From positions 1 to 43,613 of IMG/VR virus record IMGVR_UViG_2654587728_000013: a stretch of DNA of 43,613 bases; one strand, 5' to 3'. Under the pieces are notes generated by a model that worked only from the letters and a program-made list of their open reading frames with translations, had not been told where the DNA came from and searched no databases. This stretch comes from a virus (Duplodnaviria > Heunggongvirae > Uroviricota > Caudoviricetes). The translations under genes and the position numbers were made by a program. This document shows positions 1-33,457 of the stretch, piece after piece; within the stretch, counting starts at the first letter, position 1, and every line of letters starts with the position of its first letter.

Positions 1-255
1 TTATTTCTCCGTATTCTTATCGATTAGCCGCATCATGCGTCTGAGCATTTTTTTGTATCGATCTGGTTCATCGAACTCAATAGAGAATCCTGGATCGCAA
101 AGTCCGCCATGTTCGTAATATGGTTTCTCAATCGGATATTTAGCCAATATTTTTGCATGCGCCTCCGCTCTTACCGCTGCCCTGCGCGTCAAAAAATGTC
201 GACCGCGAGAAGGAGAAAACCAGACTTTTTTCATTTGCATGGTCACCGTGCTCAT
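1..255 (-). CDS. hypothetical early protein (last gene of early-left operon)
   Basis: ORF 1..276(-); stop TAA at window position 1-3; start uncertain (ATG candidates at 276/255/240); follows coupled upstream gene. Confidence 0.4.
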   Translation of the reverse strand: MSTVTMQMKKVWFSPSRGRHFLTRRAAVRAEAHAKILAKYPIEKPYYEHGGLCDPGFSIEFDEPDRYKKMLRRMMRLIDKNTEK

Positions 256-1875: not shown

Positions 1876-2757
1876 TTACATCGGTACTTCGTTCAGTTCG
1901 TCGCAGCGAATGGTGTAAACGTCAGTTGCTTTTGCCAGCAGGTCATCATCACCAGCCAGTTTCTGGGCAACGTATTTGTATGCTTTGTCCAGGTCAGCCT
2001 GGGTGTTGTAGTTCATCGCCGCGCCGGAAAATGCGTGCAAAATCTCTTCAGGACCGCGATCGTCTTTATGCTGCTGACGCTCTTCCTGCTTCTGCTCTGG
2101 TTTTGAGTTGATCAGGCTGTTCATGCCATGAGCCGTTGCCGCAGATGGCGTGATGTCGCGCTCAACACGCGGTGTTGTCTCCTGCAATTCGTCAGGGGTG
2201 TATACTCCGAGCAGAACATCAGGTGCATGCAGACGAGCCCAACGCTTAACGCACAGGTAAGCAAGCTGCTGTCGTGGATCCTGTTCCCACAGCGGAGAGT
2301 TACGGACACCTGCCTGAGCCATGCTGATGGTAAGCTCGCGCGGCTCTGCTTCGCCTTTCAGTACTGCCGATACTGTTACGGTCAGTGATGGTGATTTGTC
2401 GCTCTTGCCATTCACCTTTGACCAGTCACCATCCCAGCGGTAATTCAGGCGAGTTGAAAGCAGGTTTGAAGAAGACACGACGGCGTTAACCAGTTGTGCT
2501 TCATAGCCAAGAGTTCCGTTTACAACGTGCGTCTTCTGCGCAACAGCGAACGGGTTCATGCCCCATTGCGCCGCCTGCATGGTAACTGCCAGACAATCAG
2601 CAGGCTTTCCTGCCAGGTGCTGAGGAACGGTTGCTTTACTGTCTGCCATCAGGGTTGCGAAACGTACCAGGCGGTCCATACCCTCAGGACTGAATATTGC
2701 AGCCGCTGTCCCTACGGTAGCGCCTGGCTGTGATGTGATTGCGATATCGTTGCTCAT
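1876..2757 (-). CDS. recT: RecT-family single-strand annealing recombinase
   Basis: DRLVRFATLMADSKATVPQHLAGKPADCLAV...QWGMNPFAVAQKTHVVNGTLGYEAQL is characteristic of RecT; start MSNDIA overlaps upstream stop (ATGA). Confidence 0.85.
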   Translation of the reverse strand: MSNDIAITSQPGATVGTAAAIFSPEGMDRLVRFATLMADSKATVPQHLAGKPADCLAVTMQAAQWGMNPFAVAQKTHVVNGTLGYEAQLVNAVVSSSNLLSTRLNYRWDGDWSKVNGKSDKSPSLTVTVSAVLKGEAEPRELTISMAQAGVRNSPLWEQDPRQQLAYLCVKRWARLHAPDVLLGVYTPDELQETTPRVERDITPSAATAHGMNSLINSKPEQKQEERQQHKDDRGPEEILHAFSGAAMNYNTQADLDKAYKYVAQKLAGDDDLLAKATDVYTIRCDELNEVPM

Positions 2758-3575
2758 ACGTACATATCCTGTTTTCGTGCCCATTCAGGGCGTTTAATAA
2801 TTTCCACGCCGCCCCATTCATCGCTGATGCGGCATTCGTGATAGGTGTTCAGATCCCGGCGGAATAACTGATGCCCGGCGTCAACATCTGGCGCATCCAG
2901 CTCGAACACGCGGACAGGGTATCGACCGCAGTCGATGGTTTCGCTCACAGCCAGGAAGAAGAATCCGTGTGGCTGCCCGGTTACTTTCAGTGCGCCTTCG
3001 CGGTACATGGCGTCCTGGACGTGGTAGCGGAATTCCTCGATGTGACGGGCAAAGCGATCCATGTCTGCAACTTTTTTCACATCTACGATCACGTTGTGCT
3101 CATTCAGCCATTTATCTGGACGGATTCGGCACAGTTCGCCAGTCTCTTCGTCATTCCAGTACATCGACGCTTCATAGTGACCTGGTGCTTCCAGCATCCA
3201 CCTCGCCGCAGGGTGGGCCATTGCGCTGTCGCGCATCAGTTTCAGTTTCCGGCCCTGCTCGGCATCCATCACCGTCATACCCATGTCGGCAACGTCTTTC
3301 AGGAATGCTTCTTCGTCTGCTTTTCCCTGATTTGTGCGTCGGTTGAACTGTGGCGCCACGATGAAACGCTTATCGAATTCCTTCGGCTCCAGCAGCAGGC
3401 AGTGCAGAGCAGTACCCATGTCCAGTGCCGATTTTTTCTCTTCATCTTCCGGCGCTGCCTTGACCCATTTCAGAAGGGCAGGGTTCTTGGCCACCATATC
3501 CAGTTGTGACTTACTCACGCCGTCACCGGCGTGGTAGTCCTCGTTGCTGATGTCGAAATAGATACCGGTATTCAT
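2754..3575 (-). CDS. PD-(D/E)XK exonuclease (RecE/YqaJ-like partner of RecT)
   Basis: 273 aa; IVDVKK...EEFRYHVQ nuclease-like motifs; immediately upstream of and coupled to recT. Confidence 0.7.
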   Translation of the reverse strand: MNTGIYFDISNEDYHAGDGVSKSQLDMVAKNPALLKWVKAAPEDEEKKSALDMGTALHCLLLEPKEFDKRFIVAPQFNRRTNQGKADEEAFLKDVADMGMTVMDAEQGRKLKLMRDSAMAHPAARWMLEAPGHYEASMYWNDEETGELCRIRPDKWLNEHNVIVDVKKVADMDRFARHIEEFRYHVQDAMYREGALKVTGQPHGFFFLAVSETIDCGRYPVRVFELDAPDVDAGHQLFRRDLNTYHECRISDEWGGVEIIKRPEWARKQDMYV

Positions 3576-5245: not shown

Positions 5246-5842
5246 TTACTTGCTTTTGTTCTGCTCAAACACGAAGTTAATGAATGAGGTGATCTTGTTT
5301 TTCTCTTCCTGAGGCAGAGCTGCATACAACCTGTGGTCGTAGTCGATAACACCAGGAGCGCCGACGGGAATAATCATCTCGTATGCTTCATGCCCGAACG
5401 CGCGCGCCAGGGAGGAAAGAACGCCGATAGTTGTGCTGACTTCCGCTTTCATAATCCGGTTAACTGTGGCCGGGCCAATACCAGCTGCTACAGCAACTTT
5501 CTTTTCTGATGTCATTTCCGTGTTCTTTCTCATCCAGGCATTGAGCGTGGCTGCAGCCTGCTTCTCTACAGTCCATTCGCCATCATCAGTGGCCGGAATA
5601 AAGATATCAGCCTGTACCGCGTCCAGTTCGTGATCGACATCAAGCCAGAACTTTTCTTTGCGCGCTGCTTCCTCAATGATACGCGCTGCATTTGGTCCGA
5701 TGTTTTTGATGCCAGTGCACCACCTGTTGACCAGGTTCTGCGAACGCTTCACACGTTCGGCAAAGCGCAACTGGGTATCATCGAAATCCCGGCGAATGAT
5801 TTCGTTAAGGTTTTTGCGTCTTATGTCATAAATACTTTTCAT
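5246..5842 (-). CDS. prophage repressor, tandem XRE-type HTH, no LexA-like peptidase domain
   Basis: 198 aa; two HTH-like segments (QLRFAERVKRSQNLVNRW... and EKKVAVAAGIGPATVNRIMKAE...); flanked by operator triplets; divergent from Cro-like gene. Confidence 0.6.
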   Translation of the reverse strand: MKSIYDIRRKNLNEIIRRDFDDTQLRFAERVKRSQNLVNRWCTGIKNIGPNAARIIEEAARKEKFWLDVDHELDAVQADIFIPATDDGEWTVEKQAAATLNAWMRKNTEMTSEKKVAVAAGIGPATVNRIMKAEVSTTIGVLSSLARAFGHEAYEMIIPVGAPGVIDYDHRLYAALPQEEKNKITSFINFVFEQNKSK

Positions 5843-5895
5843 AGCTATTGTATTTGTCCATTTAATGTTACCTAACTGACTAAATTTAAATGAAT

Positions 5896-5959
5896 ATTAC
5901 CATAAAGGTAAAGTTACCATAACGGTAATAATCATTGATTTTTTCACCAGAAAGGTAAT
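5896..5959. promoter_or_regulatory. OR-like operator triplet: 5896..5912, 5913..5929 (TTACC-N5-GGTAA) and 5943..5959 (TCACC variant)
   Basis: Divergent intergenic region between repressor and Cro-like gene; plus-strand TTGATT (5935-5940) then TAATAA/ATAATT about 17 bp downstream overlapping third site. Confidence 0.6.
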
Positions 5960-5997
5960 AATTCAGATATGAATAGACAGGCTGAGATAAGCAAAAT

Positions 5998-6231
5998 ATG
6001 AGTGACGAAAAAAAATTTGATTTCAAAAAGCACTGGCTGGGACTGTCTCCTGATGAGCGTGAAGCATTTGCAGATGAAGCCGGAACCACCAGTCATTACA
6101 TCCAGACTCACCTGACCGGGCGCCGCAAGATGCCGGGTAAGCGACTGATGGACGGGCTGTTTAAAGCATGTCGCTCCCGCGAATGGACAAAGTCTAAACC
6201 TGAATTAGTGCTCTTCTTCTACGACCGATAA
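5998..6231 (+). CDS. Cro-like HTH regulator
   Basis: 77 aa; first rightward gene divergent from repressor; HTH-like segment AGTTSHYIQTHLTGRRKMPGKRLMDGL. Confidence 0.5.
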   Translation: MSDEKKFDFKKHWLGLSPDEREAFADEAGTTSHYIQTHLTGRRKMPGKRLMDGLFKACRSREWTKSKPELVLFFYDR

Positions 6232-6379
6232 CCCTCCCTGAACCCATCAATGCCGTCATTACCTGGCGGCTCCTTCCTGCATAAAACACCTTTTCGGTAA
6301 TAAAAAACCATATACGGTTGATCTTTTTTTCTTCCTGCATCAAAATCATCGTAATAGTAAACGTTAATGAGGTTGTGCA

Positions 6380-6580
6380 ATGGAGATTATTACTCGCCTT
6401 GACGCTGCAAAGGCAGGTCTTAAGCGTTATTACACCGGAAAACAGTGTAAGCATGGTCATGACAGTGAGCGCTACGTTTACAACGGGCACTGCGTTACAT
6501 GCGCCATCAACACGAGCCTGCGCCGCCAGGCAGAAATAAAGCAGCTCATGGCCGAAGCCAGCCTGCAACACTCAAGCTGA
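6380..6580 (+). CDS. small zinc-binding protein, possible CII-position regulator
   Basis: 66 aa; Cys/His cluster CKHGHDSERYVYNGHCVTC; position between cro-like and replication genes. Confidence 0.35.
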   Translation: MEIITRLDAAKAGLKRYYTGKQCKHGHDSERYVYNGHCVTCAINTSLRRQAEIKQLMAEASLQHSS

Positions 6581-6595
6581 CGACAGGTATTTACC

Positions 6596-7414
6596 ATGAG
6601 CAGATACGCAACAGAGTGGGCATGGAAAACAAATCCGGGCAGCTCATCACTGAAACTCATCCTGCTCTCGATGGCTGATCGAGCCGATGAATACAACCTG
6701 TGCTATCCAAGCATCGAACGCCTGGTTACCGACACAAGCCTGAATAAAAAAACAGTTCAGGCTGGTCTTATTTCGCTCATCGGAATGGGGCTAATTTCAG
6801 ATACAGGAGAAAGAAAAGGGGCAACAAGAAGGGTCCGGGTTTTCTCTTTAAACATACCCAAAAACGGTAATGTTACCAATATTGGGAATATACCCAAAAA
6901 CGGGAAGTTGAATGATCCCAAAAACGGGAAGTTGAATGATCCCAAAAACGGGAAGTTGAATGATCCCAAAAACGGGAAGTTGAATGATCCCAAAAACGGG
7001 ATGCAGAACCTATCAGTTAACCAGTCATATAACCAAGAGAAGGAGAGGGGCGATAAAACTGGGGGTTTAGTGCCTCAGAGGACTGACGCTAACAACGCCG
7101 TGATTAACAACTTTGTCCCTCCTGGTGGACTGGGGCAATTCGGGAAATTTGTCATGCATGAGCACTGGTCACCATCGGATGATTTCCTCCGGGTGTCTTC
7201 ATTGCAGGGCATTAACCTGGATTGCCAGCCAACGCCACAGGAGCTTGCAGAGTTCAGGGTTTACTGGATGGCCGAGGGTAAGGCTTTCCACCATGCGCAA
7301 TGGGAGCAAAAACTTGCCAGACGTCTGCAGATCAGCAGACAGAACAAACTTACCTCACCTGAAAACAACGTACCGCACTGGAACAGTCCAGAGGCGTGGG
7401 AGGATTTCCTGTGA
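6596..7414 (+). CDS. replication initiation protein (lambda O-like) containing the origin iterons
   Basis: 272 aa; N-terminal HTH-like domain; internal PKNGKLND x4 repeats encoded by DNA iterons; followed by P-like gene. Confidence 0.75.
   Translation: MSRYATEWAWKTNPGSSSLKLILLSMADRADEYNLCYPSIERLVTDTSLNKKTVQAGLISLIGMGLISDTGERKGATRRVRVFSLNIPKNGNVTNIGNIPKNGKLNDPKNGKLNDPKNGKLNDPKNGKLNDPKNGMQNLSVNQSYNQEKERGDKTGGLVPQRTDANNAVINNFVPPGGLGQFGKFVMHEHWSPSDDFLRVSSLQGINLDCQPTPQELAEFRVYWMAEGKAFHHAQWEQKLARRLQISRQNKLTSPENNVPHWNSPEAWEDFL
6857..7000 (+). repeat. origin-like iteron array: 4 perfect 24-bp direct repeats (6893..6988) plus flanking partial copies
   Basis: CCCAAAAACGGGAAGTTGAATGAT x4, with CCCAAAAACGG partials at 6857 and 6989; lies inside the O-like gene as in lambda ori. 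Confidence 0.75.
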
Positions 7415-8196
7415 ATAACGTATTTACCGCCATCCAGAACCGAGACGGTGAGGCTATGGCCAGCTTAACCGGTTCAGACCGTCAATATGCAGGCAGCGAC
7501 AACGTTGTGAACATCACGGCAGAGCGCCTTGTAGATGCCCTGTTTAAACAGCTTAAGCAGCTATTCCCGGCAGCTGAGCAGACCAACCTGAAGACTCCGG
7601 CGCAGGAGACAGCAGCAAAGCAACAGTGGATCGCTGCATTCGCCGAAGGTGGCATCCGTACCCGTGAGCAGGTATCGGCAGGGATGCGACATGCCCGTGC
7701 CAGTGAATCACCGTTCTGGCCTTCACCTGGGCAATTCATCAAGTGGTGCAAAGACAGCAAGATGGTTCTGGGGATCAGCATTGATGACGTGATGGGGGAG
7801 TTTCACCGTTACGCCAAAGAGAAAAGCCTCCAGCCTGGTGGGCCCGAGAGATTCCCGTGGCGTCACCCGGTCATGTACTGGATTGTGTGTGATACCCGGA
7901 GGGCGATGTATCAGCGCCAGCTGAGTGAGGCTGAAGTTGAGAAGCATGCTCGCAAGCTGCTGGATGAATGGTCGGCAAAAGTGGCATCCGGTCACCAGAT
8001 TCCAGATCCGATACTCAGCATACAAGCCAAGCCAGAGCCAATGAGCACACCACAGACAGGCTCAGGTAACGCCTACCATCCACCAGGGCGAAGTTTCGGA
8101 TGCATGCCGAACGCAGCCACCCTGGGAGGGATAACGCCTGCACAGTGGCTCATGGAGGAATGCAGGCGAGGGAAGGCAGCAGGACTCATCAAGTAA
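7411..8196 (+). CDS. replication protein P-like helicase loader
   Basis: Recalled lambda P similarity (QQWIAAFAEGGIRTREQVSAGMRHAR...PSPGQFIKWCKD); GTG start at 7411 overlaps O-like stop (GTGA); ORF track start 7396. Confidence 0.75.
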   Translation: MNNVFTAIQNRDGEAMASLTGSDRQYAGSDNVVNITAERLVDALFKQLKQLFPAAEQTNLKTPAQETAAKQQWIAAFAEGGIRTREQVSAGMRHARASESPFWPSPGQFIKWCKDSKMVLGISIDDVMGEFHRYAKEKSLQPGGPERFPWRHPVMYWIVCDTRRAMYQRQLSEAEVEKHARKLLDEWSAKVASGHQIPDPILSIQAKPEPMSTPQTGSGNAYHPPGRSFGCMPNAATLGGITPAQWLMEECRRGKAAGLIK

Positions 8197-8232
8197 TACC
8201 AGCGCAGTAGCGCATTTTTTTACATCCAATGA

Positions 8233-8249
8233 ATTACCAAAAGGGTAAT
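8233..8249. promoter_or_regulatory. operator copy ATTACC-AAAAG-GGTAAT
   Basis: Perfect TTACC-N5-GGTAA in intergenic region upstream of resolvase gene. Confidence 0.5.
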
Positions 8250-8294
8250 AAAATATGCGCATTGCTATTGAAATTAACCCATTTGTGGTTTTAA

Positions 8295-8311
8295 ATTACC
8301 TGAGAGGTAAA
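8295..8311. promoter_or_regulatory. operator copy ATTACC-TGAGA-GGTAAA overlapping RBS of resolvase gene
   Basis: Perfect TTACC-N5-GGTAA ending 3 bp before ATG at 8314. Confidence 0.5.
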
Positions 8312-8313
8312 TC

Positions 8314-8778
8314 ATGGCGGCAGTATTAGGGATTGACCCAGGATGCAGCGGATCTCTGGTCCTGATAACTGAGCAGGGCGGATACATCGACCACCTGGCA
8401 ATGCCGACCATCAAGGTTGGGACAAAGTCCAGAGTCAACGGCGCAGCGGTGGCTGCATGGCTGCGTAAGTACGGAATTACGCACGCATACCTCGAGCAGG
8501 TGGGCGCAATGCCAGGGCAGGGAACGGCGAGCATGTTCACGTTCGGTCATGCCGCTGGGGTAGCGGAGGGGATCCTGCAGGGTCTCAACATTCCGTACAC
8601 GCTGGTAACGCCGCAGGCCTGGAAGAAGTCAGCCGGTCTCATCGGAAGTGACAAGGACGCGGCACGCAGCAGAGCAATTCAGCTCTACCCGGAACTCAGG
8701 GCGCTGGATGCAAAAGCGAAAGGTCAGGCCATAGCTGATGCGCTGTTAATCGCCAGGCACGGGATCGGTATCAAATAA
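8314..8778 (+). CDS. RuvC-like Holliday junction resolvase
   Basis: 154 aa; N-terminal LGIDPGCSGSLVL resembles RuvC-family catalytic motif. Confidence 0.65.
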   Translation: MAAVLGIDPGCSGSLVLITEQGGYIDHLAMPTIKVGTKSRVNGAAVAAWLRKYGITHAYLEQVGAMPGQGTASMFTFGHAAGVAEGILQGLNIPYTLVTPQAWKKSAGLIGSDKDAARSRAIQLYPELRALDAKAKGQAIADALLIARHGIGIK

Positions 8779-33198: not shown

Positions 33199-33457
33199 CT
33201 TTTAGTCTGGTTAATCACCACCGGAGGTTCCAATCTCGGAGGTGGTGAACTGTGCAGGGTTGGAACTACCGGCTAAAAGGACCCGGCGCACCTTTCGGTG
33301 CCCCCACACAGCCCACCATAATGCGAATGTGGCCGTGCTTAACGCATAAAAAAACCGCTTGCGCGGTGAATGCGCCTTTTAGTATCCGGGGTTCCAATCC
33401 CGGCACTGGATTTTGCCAGTGCCTGATCACTATGGCACAAGTATTTTGCGTTGTAAA

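Follow-up and report, generated by a model that had tools for sequence, protein, structure and literature searches.

The DNA analyzed here (IMG/VR virus record IMGVR_UViG_2654587728_000013, 43,613 nucleotides [nt]) is, to judge by its sequence, an epsilon15/phiV10-like (Uetakevirus-type) prophage. We refer to the whole 43.6-kb stretch as the window, and all positions are numbered on it. An open reading frame (ORF) on the + strand (6596..7414) encodes a replication initiator of 272 amino acids (aa), in which an N-terminal HTH_36 domain and a DnaT-like C-terminal domain are joined by a repeat-encoded linker. The gene overlaps that of a lambda P homologue. The repeats, seven copies of a short core between positions 6857 and 7000, very probably constitute the initiator-binding (iteron) part of the prophage replication origin, which would thus lie inside the linker-coding segment of the initiator gene; this assignment draws on sequence comparison and on analogy with the phage lambda origin (oriLambda).

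An array of seven cores inside the initiator gene

Tandem Repeats Finder reported a sole strong repeat array in the window (6893-7001), with a period of 24 bp, 4.5 copies, 100% matches, and a score of 218. The unit of this perfect tandem sub-array (6893..7001, + strand) is CCCAAAAACGGGAAGTTGAATGAT, repeated 4.5 times, and to its left the program delimited a degenerate array with a period of 18 bp (6854-6906). The 11-mer CCCAAAAACGG occurs in six exact copies in the window, every one of them within 6857-6999, and a seventh, degenerate core (ACCAATATTGGG) is located at 6875. With up to one mismatch, the 11-mer is found seven times in the window versus 0.77 ± 0.94 times expected, a count reached in none of 100 shuffles. 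The full iteron array (6857..7000, + strand) therefore comprises cores starting at 6857, 6875 (the degenerate one), 6893, 6917, 6941, 6965, and 6989, with core-to-core spacings of 18, 18, 24, 24, 24, and 24 bp. The array core has the form (T)CCCAAAAACGGG(A), with CCC and GGG as an outer dyad. The array is in frame with the initiator ORF, and its translation reads IPKNGNVTNIGNIPKNG(KLNDPKNG)x4. The original prediction for this stretch, made from the letters alone, had described four perfect 24-bp direct repeats with partial flanking copies, placed inside the coding sequence and read as PKNGKLND. It was accurate on all these points: there are 4.5 perfect copies plus two flanking copies spaced by 18 bp, the translation is in frame, and the limits given, 6857 and 7000, coincide to the base with the start of the first core and the end of the last one.

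Each 24-bp unit also contains a GATC (6914, 6938, 6962, and 6986), which places four Dam sites 24 bp apart. GATC is likewise present in the repeat units of Edwardsiella phage GF-2 and is not found in those of the Vibrio and Burkholderia phages described below. A link of SeqA or methylation to the GATCs of the array may exist.

The core is conserved at the DNA level

Diverged relatives of the initiator came from tblastn searches of phage records; a profile search of viral contigs gave close relatives only. Homologous N-domains (45-90% identity) are encoded by the Escherichia coli phages phiV10, BP9, EC.W1-9, and PPompW, Edwardsiella GF-2, Vibrio H20, Acinetobacter AP22 and Ab105-2phi, and Burkholderia Bcep176. 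In every phage of this set, repeats with the common core CCNAAAWNNGG follow directly after the N-domain, and N-domain and cores always co-occur across the five host genera. The repeats of GF-2 are 2.8 copies of AATGATCCCAAAATTGGGATTTTG and those of Vibrio H20 are 4.6 copies of CCGAAAACGGTACTTTGAATAGGC. The core of AP22 and Bcep176 is a full palindrome, CCCAAATTTGGG, consistent with dimer binding of the kind described for lambda O (PMC6022878). In each locus, the core pattern clusters in the 260-nt linker and drops to 0 to 0.5 per kb elsewhere; initiators with other N-domains have linkers that lack it.

The reading frame of the core is not preserved in the family. In Bcep176, periods of 17 and 22 bp distribute the cores over all three frames, so that no repeat appears in the peptide. 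Core copies in other frames, specifying unrelated peptides, also occur in PPompW, GF-2, and H20, and the spacing is irregular in PPompW and GF-2. The presence of the core in all three frames across the family indicates that the constraint is on the DNA and not on the peptide. Codon usage was compared at positions where the amino acids are identical. Between the window and phiV10, such codons agreed in 37 of 42 cases across the segment of iterons and 12-mers versus 91 of 150 across the folded domains taken together (Fisher p = 7e-4). The corresponding figures for the comparison with GF-2 were 20 of 22 and 26 of 50 (p = 1.4e-3). Within the arrays, amino acids vary (P/T, K/E, and N/I) whereas the core positions CC..A.A..GG are fixed.

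The N-domain and the repeats form one module

Mosaic relatives of the window show that the N-domain and the repeats make up one module and the C-domain and the helicase loader another. Enterobacter phage BUCT554 has the DnaT-like C-domain and the P protein of the window together with an unrelated N-domain, and it is devoid of CCNAAAWNNGG repeats. In Edwardsiella phage GF-2, a window-type N-domain and its iterons are fused to a lambda-O C-domain, beside a lambda-type P. Two types of P protein can be distinguished, and they track the type of C-domain and not that of the N-domain, which fits the lambda rule that the initiator C-domain contacts P (PMC6022878).

The joint of the GF-2 chimera (2001-3526) lies directly after the short-repeat block that follows the cores. 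More distant HTH_36 initiators carry other repeats at the equivalent place, namely, 24-mers containing GGGCAGGAGCTGCCC in the O gene of Shiga toxin (Stx) phage 24B and 22-mers in Aeromonas phage 51. Finally, a circular E. coli record of 8461 bp (NZ_CP148379.1) combines a repressor/cro/YdaT region, a PPompW-type initiator, a P gene, and defence genes. No other replication gene is listed in this single record, whose gene table is incomplete; it may represent a naturally occurring plasmid of the lambda-dv kind or else an error of assembly.

Number of repeat units among relatives

The number of 24-bp units differs between close relatives. Prophages 94-97% identical to the window have one (E. coli MARGA_3) or two (ET846), and two assemblies of a single strain, E. 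coli E2348/69, differ by exactly one unit (three in NZ_CP059840.2 and two in NC_011601.1), a discrepancy due either to genuine instability during culture or to the way the reads were assembled. In a survey of 80 IMG/VR relatives, the 18-bp and 24-bp units both varied, always in frame, and complete genes carried 4 to 9 cores, with none below four. The commonest pattern (44 of the 80) was six cores with two 24-bp units; four or more of these units, as in the window, were present in two relatives only. The four perfect units of the window are a recent in-frame expansion, by slippage or recombination, of an ancestor with two to three units. The number of sites varies, and this variation is tolerated: four units are not conserved, and a floor of about four cores is kept.

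A second conserved element follows the last core

Downstream of the array lies a second conserved element (7001..7050, + strand), a candidate region for unwinding or for loading on single-stranded DNA (ssDNA). In it, CAGAACC starts 5 nt past the last core, and AACC is present at 7007, 7019, and 7031, i.e., with a spacing of 12 bp, followed by a purine run. This arrangement recurs in all eight diverged family members compared, which have CAGAAC(C) 5-6 nt past the last core and then (G)AAYC, repeated two to four times at intervals of 9-13 bp. The spacings are 13 and 12 bp in Vibrio H20, 9-10 bp in Bcep176, and 10 bp in PPompW. Since several of them are not multiples of three, the (G)AAYC block is also a DNA-level element. 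The block at 7001-7050 is the best candidate for the site of opening or single-strand loading.

The initiator combines HTH_36 and DnaT-like domains

The Pfam HTH_36 winged-helix model matches residues 18-67 of the initiator (E 2e-10; 40.7 bits versus a gathering score of 25), and the Pfam DnaT model matches residues 185-254 (E 6.7e-17; 61.4 bits versus a gathering score of 25), so that the repeat-encoded segment is the linker between these two domains. Full-length similarity (residues 1-270, E 1.1e-96) was found to phrog_1032, 'replication initiation protein'. The window protein thus belongs to the HTH_36 plus DnaT-like phage initiators (phrog_1032; phiV10 gp43 type). Its N-terminal DNA-binding domain (aa 1-86; 6596..6853, + strand), which shares 45-90% identity with the N-domains of the phage initiators listed above, is the putative reader of the iterons. 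The DnaT-like C-terminal domain (aa 185-254; 7148..7357, + strand) would contact P, ssDNA, or both.

Two other family assignments were considered and rejected. The C-terminal 85 residues match positions 86-170 of the 179 in the NCBIfam DnaT model, and the C-domain matches DnaT C-domain chains in PDB (4ou6, 9zbt, and others) with E values of about 1e-20. The protein is not DnaT itself, as the PRK02854 equivalog model of NCBIfam scored 88.7 bits versus a cut-off of 201 and was matched over its C-terminal half only. The window protein and E. coli DnaT (primosomal protein I) have the C-domain in common, but DnaT's own N-domain is absent from the window protein, which has the HTH_36 domain and the origin instead. 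Membership in the lambda O family was discarded too: the window protein matches HTH_36 only, whereas lambda O matches PF04492 (Phage_rep_O). Weak matches to phrog_678 and phrog_345, common to the window protein and lambda O, cover the repeat-encoded linker and are therefore not decisive. Neither does the window protein have a C-terminal (P-binding) domain of the lambda O type, its C-terminus being DnaT-like; the lambda type is found in the relative GF-2. The protein is hence 'O-like' by position and role only. A PDB search returned no structure for lambda O and none for the N-domain of the window initiator, and a single-sequence AlphaFold2 model of the initiator had a mean predicted local distance difference test score (pLDDT) of 30.6.

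Comparison with known in-gene origins

In lambda, the iterons lie inside O at a spacing of 20-24 bp and are followed by an AT-rich tract; O assembles on them into the O-some, and its C-domain recruits P-DnaB (PMC7466680, PMC6022878). The lambda record annotates four iterons inside O, of the form TCCCTCAAAACGAGGGA, with spacings of 20, 24, and 23 bp and in frames 0, 2, 2, and 1. As in oriLambda, dyad-symmetric direct repeats with an A-rich centre occupy the part of the initiator gene that separates the coding regions for the DNA-binding domain and the C-domain (PMC8022706 for the lambda layout), with a spacing of 18-24 bp in the window and 20-24 bp in lambda, and in both cases the initiator gene overlaps a downstream gene for a P-family loader within a rightward early operon. 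The window core, TCCCAAAAACGGGA, has, like the lambda iterons, an outer dyad of CCC and GGG around an A-rich centre, but 6 nt separate its outer triplets (CCC-N6-GGG) versus 9 nt in lambda ITN1. The two origins also differ in that the lambda iterons occupy different frames, whereas the window repeats are in frame and partly perfect and hence give a peptide repeat. The lambda initiator has Phage_rep_O and lambda-O domains where the window protein has HTH_36 and DnaT-like ones, and the 39-bp high-AT tract of lambda has its place taken in the window by the (G)AAYC short-repeat block.

Other lambdoid phages provide further terms of comparison. Stx phages 933W and P27 have six iterons in O, and distal extra iterons can matter though weakly bound (PMC7466680). 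Iteron number thus differs between related lambdoid origins, as it does among the relatives of the window (4 to 9). However, 933W and P27 have a true lambda O, lambda-type iterons, an AT-rich tract, and experimental support, whereas the window origin is proposed from sequence comparison. That distantly related lambdoid initiators (lambda, P22, and L) each have their own in-gene iterons is an already published rule, and the origin in gene 18 of phage L was inferred from sequence (PMC8022706), as in the window. The repeats in gene 18 of P22 and of L are different (in L, TGTCCAACGGA), and there a helicase of the DnaB type (gp12) takes the place of a P-type loader as partner. Closest to the window are phiV10 gp43 and the epsilon15-like 'primosomal protein' (Uetakevirus), as well as the E. 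coli prophage 'DnaT-like ssDNA-binding domain-containing protein'. They share the family and the core repeats of the window at 78-97% nucleotide identity, and with its four 24-bp units the window stands above most relatives (mode, 2). The phiV10-type and E. coli prophage records inspected name the protein and annotate no origin or repeat feature.

Neighbouring genes, antisense ORF, and prophage context

The gene downstream of the initiator (7411..8196, + strand) encodes a lambda P-family helicase loader (Pfam Phage_lambda_P, E 1.6e-56; phrog_109, 'P-like helicase loader'). Alignment with the P proteins of lambda, GF-2, BUCT554, and phiV10 indicates that its start is likely the GTG at 7411, which overlaps the TGA stop of the initiator gene (7412-7414) in the sequence GTGA; the upstream-most GTG in the ORF list, at 7396, is a less likely start. 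On the other side, a leftward gene (5246-5842, - strand) encodes a two-HTH repressor (Pfam HTH_3), and a rightward ORF of 77 aa (5998-6231, + strand) encodes a small regulator (phrog_35). A divergent promoter region lies between them (context 5246..6231), and rightward early transcription from this region runs through the putative origin. Gene order around the initiator equals that of phiV10 genes p40-p44. Directly upstream of the initiator, a 66-aa ORF (6380-6580, + strand) has the Cys/His pattern CKHGH...CVTC and matches phrog_1081 (unknown function); it is kept in the phiV10-like relatives inspected.

An antisense ORF of 78 aa with a TTG start (6757..6993, - strand) is a by-product of the repeats and not a gene, as the original prediction had held. 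The repeat unit is free of stop codons in all three antisense frames, with fewer copies the antisense frame stays open over a shorter stretch (105, 89, and 81 codons in turn), a different antisense frame is open in GF-2, and the 78-aa product has no PHROG family match.

The nearest overall relatives of the window are Salmonella phages PAT1, 65FD, and 66FD. For the replication module, the best matches are prophages of E. coli (94-97% identity), and 316 of the 5426 complete genomes of this species (~6%) carry it. Promoter and terminator predictions for 5700-8400 did not exceed the level of shuffled sequence, Rfam had no match in the origin region, and DnaA boxes occur in the window at chance level, the one at the initiator/P junction (7410-7418) being not significant. 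Elsewhere in the window, Rfam models for C4 antisense RNA (33238-33323, - strand; 77.1 bits) and for the Hfq-binding RNA isrK (33348-33422, - strand; 76.1 bits) scored above the gathering score. These adjoining RNAs are probably part of an antirepressor-control region of the prophage.

Discussion

The assignment of 6857-7000 as the iteron part of the origin is supported by several properties of the locus. Anatomically, the repeats are placed between a DNA-binding domain and a C-domain in a gene that overlaps a lambda P homologue. The core is independent of the frame and enriched in the linker, and synonymous sites are conserved; in mosaic phages, the repeats are linked to the N-domain. Further, the core has a lambda-like dyad, the array is the only strong one in the window, and every complete gene has at least four cores. 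The original prediction of a lambda-like in-gene origin is thus supported, but it needs correcting in two respects: the protein is HTH_36 plus DnaT-like and outside the lambda O family, and the perfect copies, four in the window, are a recent expansion whose number is not conserved.

By analogy with oriLambda, initiation at this site could proceed as follows. Derepression would lead to rightward early transcription and thereby to synthesis of P and the initiator. The latter would bind the partially palindromic cores (CCC-N6-GGG, 18-24 bp apart) as dimers of its HTH_36 N-domain and build an O-some-like complex, which would destabilize the adjacent DNA, most likely the (G)AAYC block at 7001-7050. 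The DnaT-like C-domain may then recruit P-DnaB, with loading of the host helicase. We also entertain, as a speculative extension that we hold to be rather doubtful, a two-part origin. A sequence-specific element, in which (G)AAYC recurs three to four times at 9-13 bp intervals from 5-6 nt past the last iteron, would replace the AT-rich tract and be read as ssDNA during opening by the initiator or a host factor, and the unstable number of iterons (4-9, with differences even inside one strain) would tune the strength of replication after induction.

Several observations speak against an iteron origin at 6857-7000 or lend it no help. Alignment of the N-domain with the N-terminus of lambda O by hhalign gave a probability of 3%, which is not significant. 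An AT-rich tract like that of lambda is missing, A+T being 58% in the 48 nt past the last core versus roughly 49% for the window, and the least stable 40-mer of the initiator gene (6843-6882) is at the left edge of the array, with ~3% of window positions less stable. The identity of the 24-bp units and their copy-number polymorphism mean that extra copies need not be individually selected. The minimum of the cumulative GC skew (5-7 kb) corresponds to a switch in gene orientation and therefore does not discriminate, and literature searches retrieved no description of an origin of the window type or its motif, and no experimental work on this initiator family.

Other explanations were weighed. 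The repeats could be a neutral in-frame minisatellite, prone to slippage, within a disordered linker, with no role in cis and the origin elsewhere. Perfect identity of the 24-bp unit, spacer included, copy numbers of 1 to 5 among near-identical prophages, the single-unit difference between the E2348/69 assemblies, and the in-frame nature of all variants, expected of a tolerant linker, would all suit such an element. Yet neutrality is improbable given that the core is kept in initiators with 45-59% N-domain identity, in five host genera and three frames, that synonymous sites are more conserved there than in the folded domains, and that BUCT554, which lacks this N-domain, lacks the repeats as well, with no complete gene falling below four cores. 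The clean peptide repeat of the window and its close relatives, where the periods (18 and 24 bp) are all multiples of three, would agree with selection on PKNGKLND as a functional peptide repeat, e.g., a docking or oligomerization motif. We consider this highly improbable, since Bcep176, PPompW, GF-2, and Vibrio H20 read the core in other frames, as unrelated peptides, and P/T, K/E, and N/I changes are tolerated while CC..A.A..GG is kept.

It is also conceivable that the initiator binds the repeats for the sake of regulation, i.e., autorepression or attenuation of the initiator-P transcript or a handcuffing-type copy control, and that opening takes place elsewhere, for example at 5828-6027. 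Plasmid iterons act in initiation and in control, and such a dual role lends this explanation some plausibility, as does the lack of a strong AT-rich tract flanking the array. Moreover, no 200-bp stretch of the window is less stable than 5828-6027, the highly AT-rich intergenic region of repressor and cro. However, this is a divergent promoter/operator region, an ordinary reason for AT-richness, and the conserved second repeat block, whose distance to the last core is constant (5-6 nt), points to a composite origin rather than an operator. Position and order of the elements also match oriLambda, where such sites are the origin (PMC7466680). We thus find a purely regulatory function unlikely and favor the iterons as part of the origin.

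The general picture of lambdoid phage replication is left unchanged by these findings, which specialists would hardly find surprising; three points are of modest interest, namely, the single core motif conserved across five host genera, the short-repeat block replacing the AT-rich tract, and the unstable copy number. They mark a probable origin for the epsilon15/phiV10-like prophages and for the module carried by ~6% of complete E. coli genomes. They also imply that the initiator gene is not freely recodable and that length polymorphism, antisense ORFs, and assembly differences at this locus stem from origin repeats. The family offers a natural swap set, in which an N-domain with its iterons is combined with DnaT-like, lambda-O-like, or other C-domains and with P, DnaB, or other partners, for dissecting how origin recognition is coupled to helicase recruitment.

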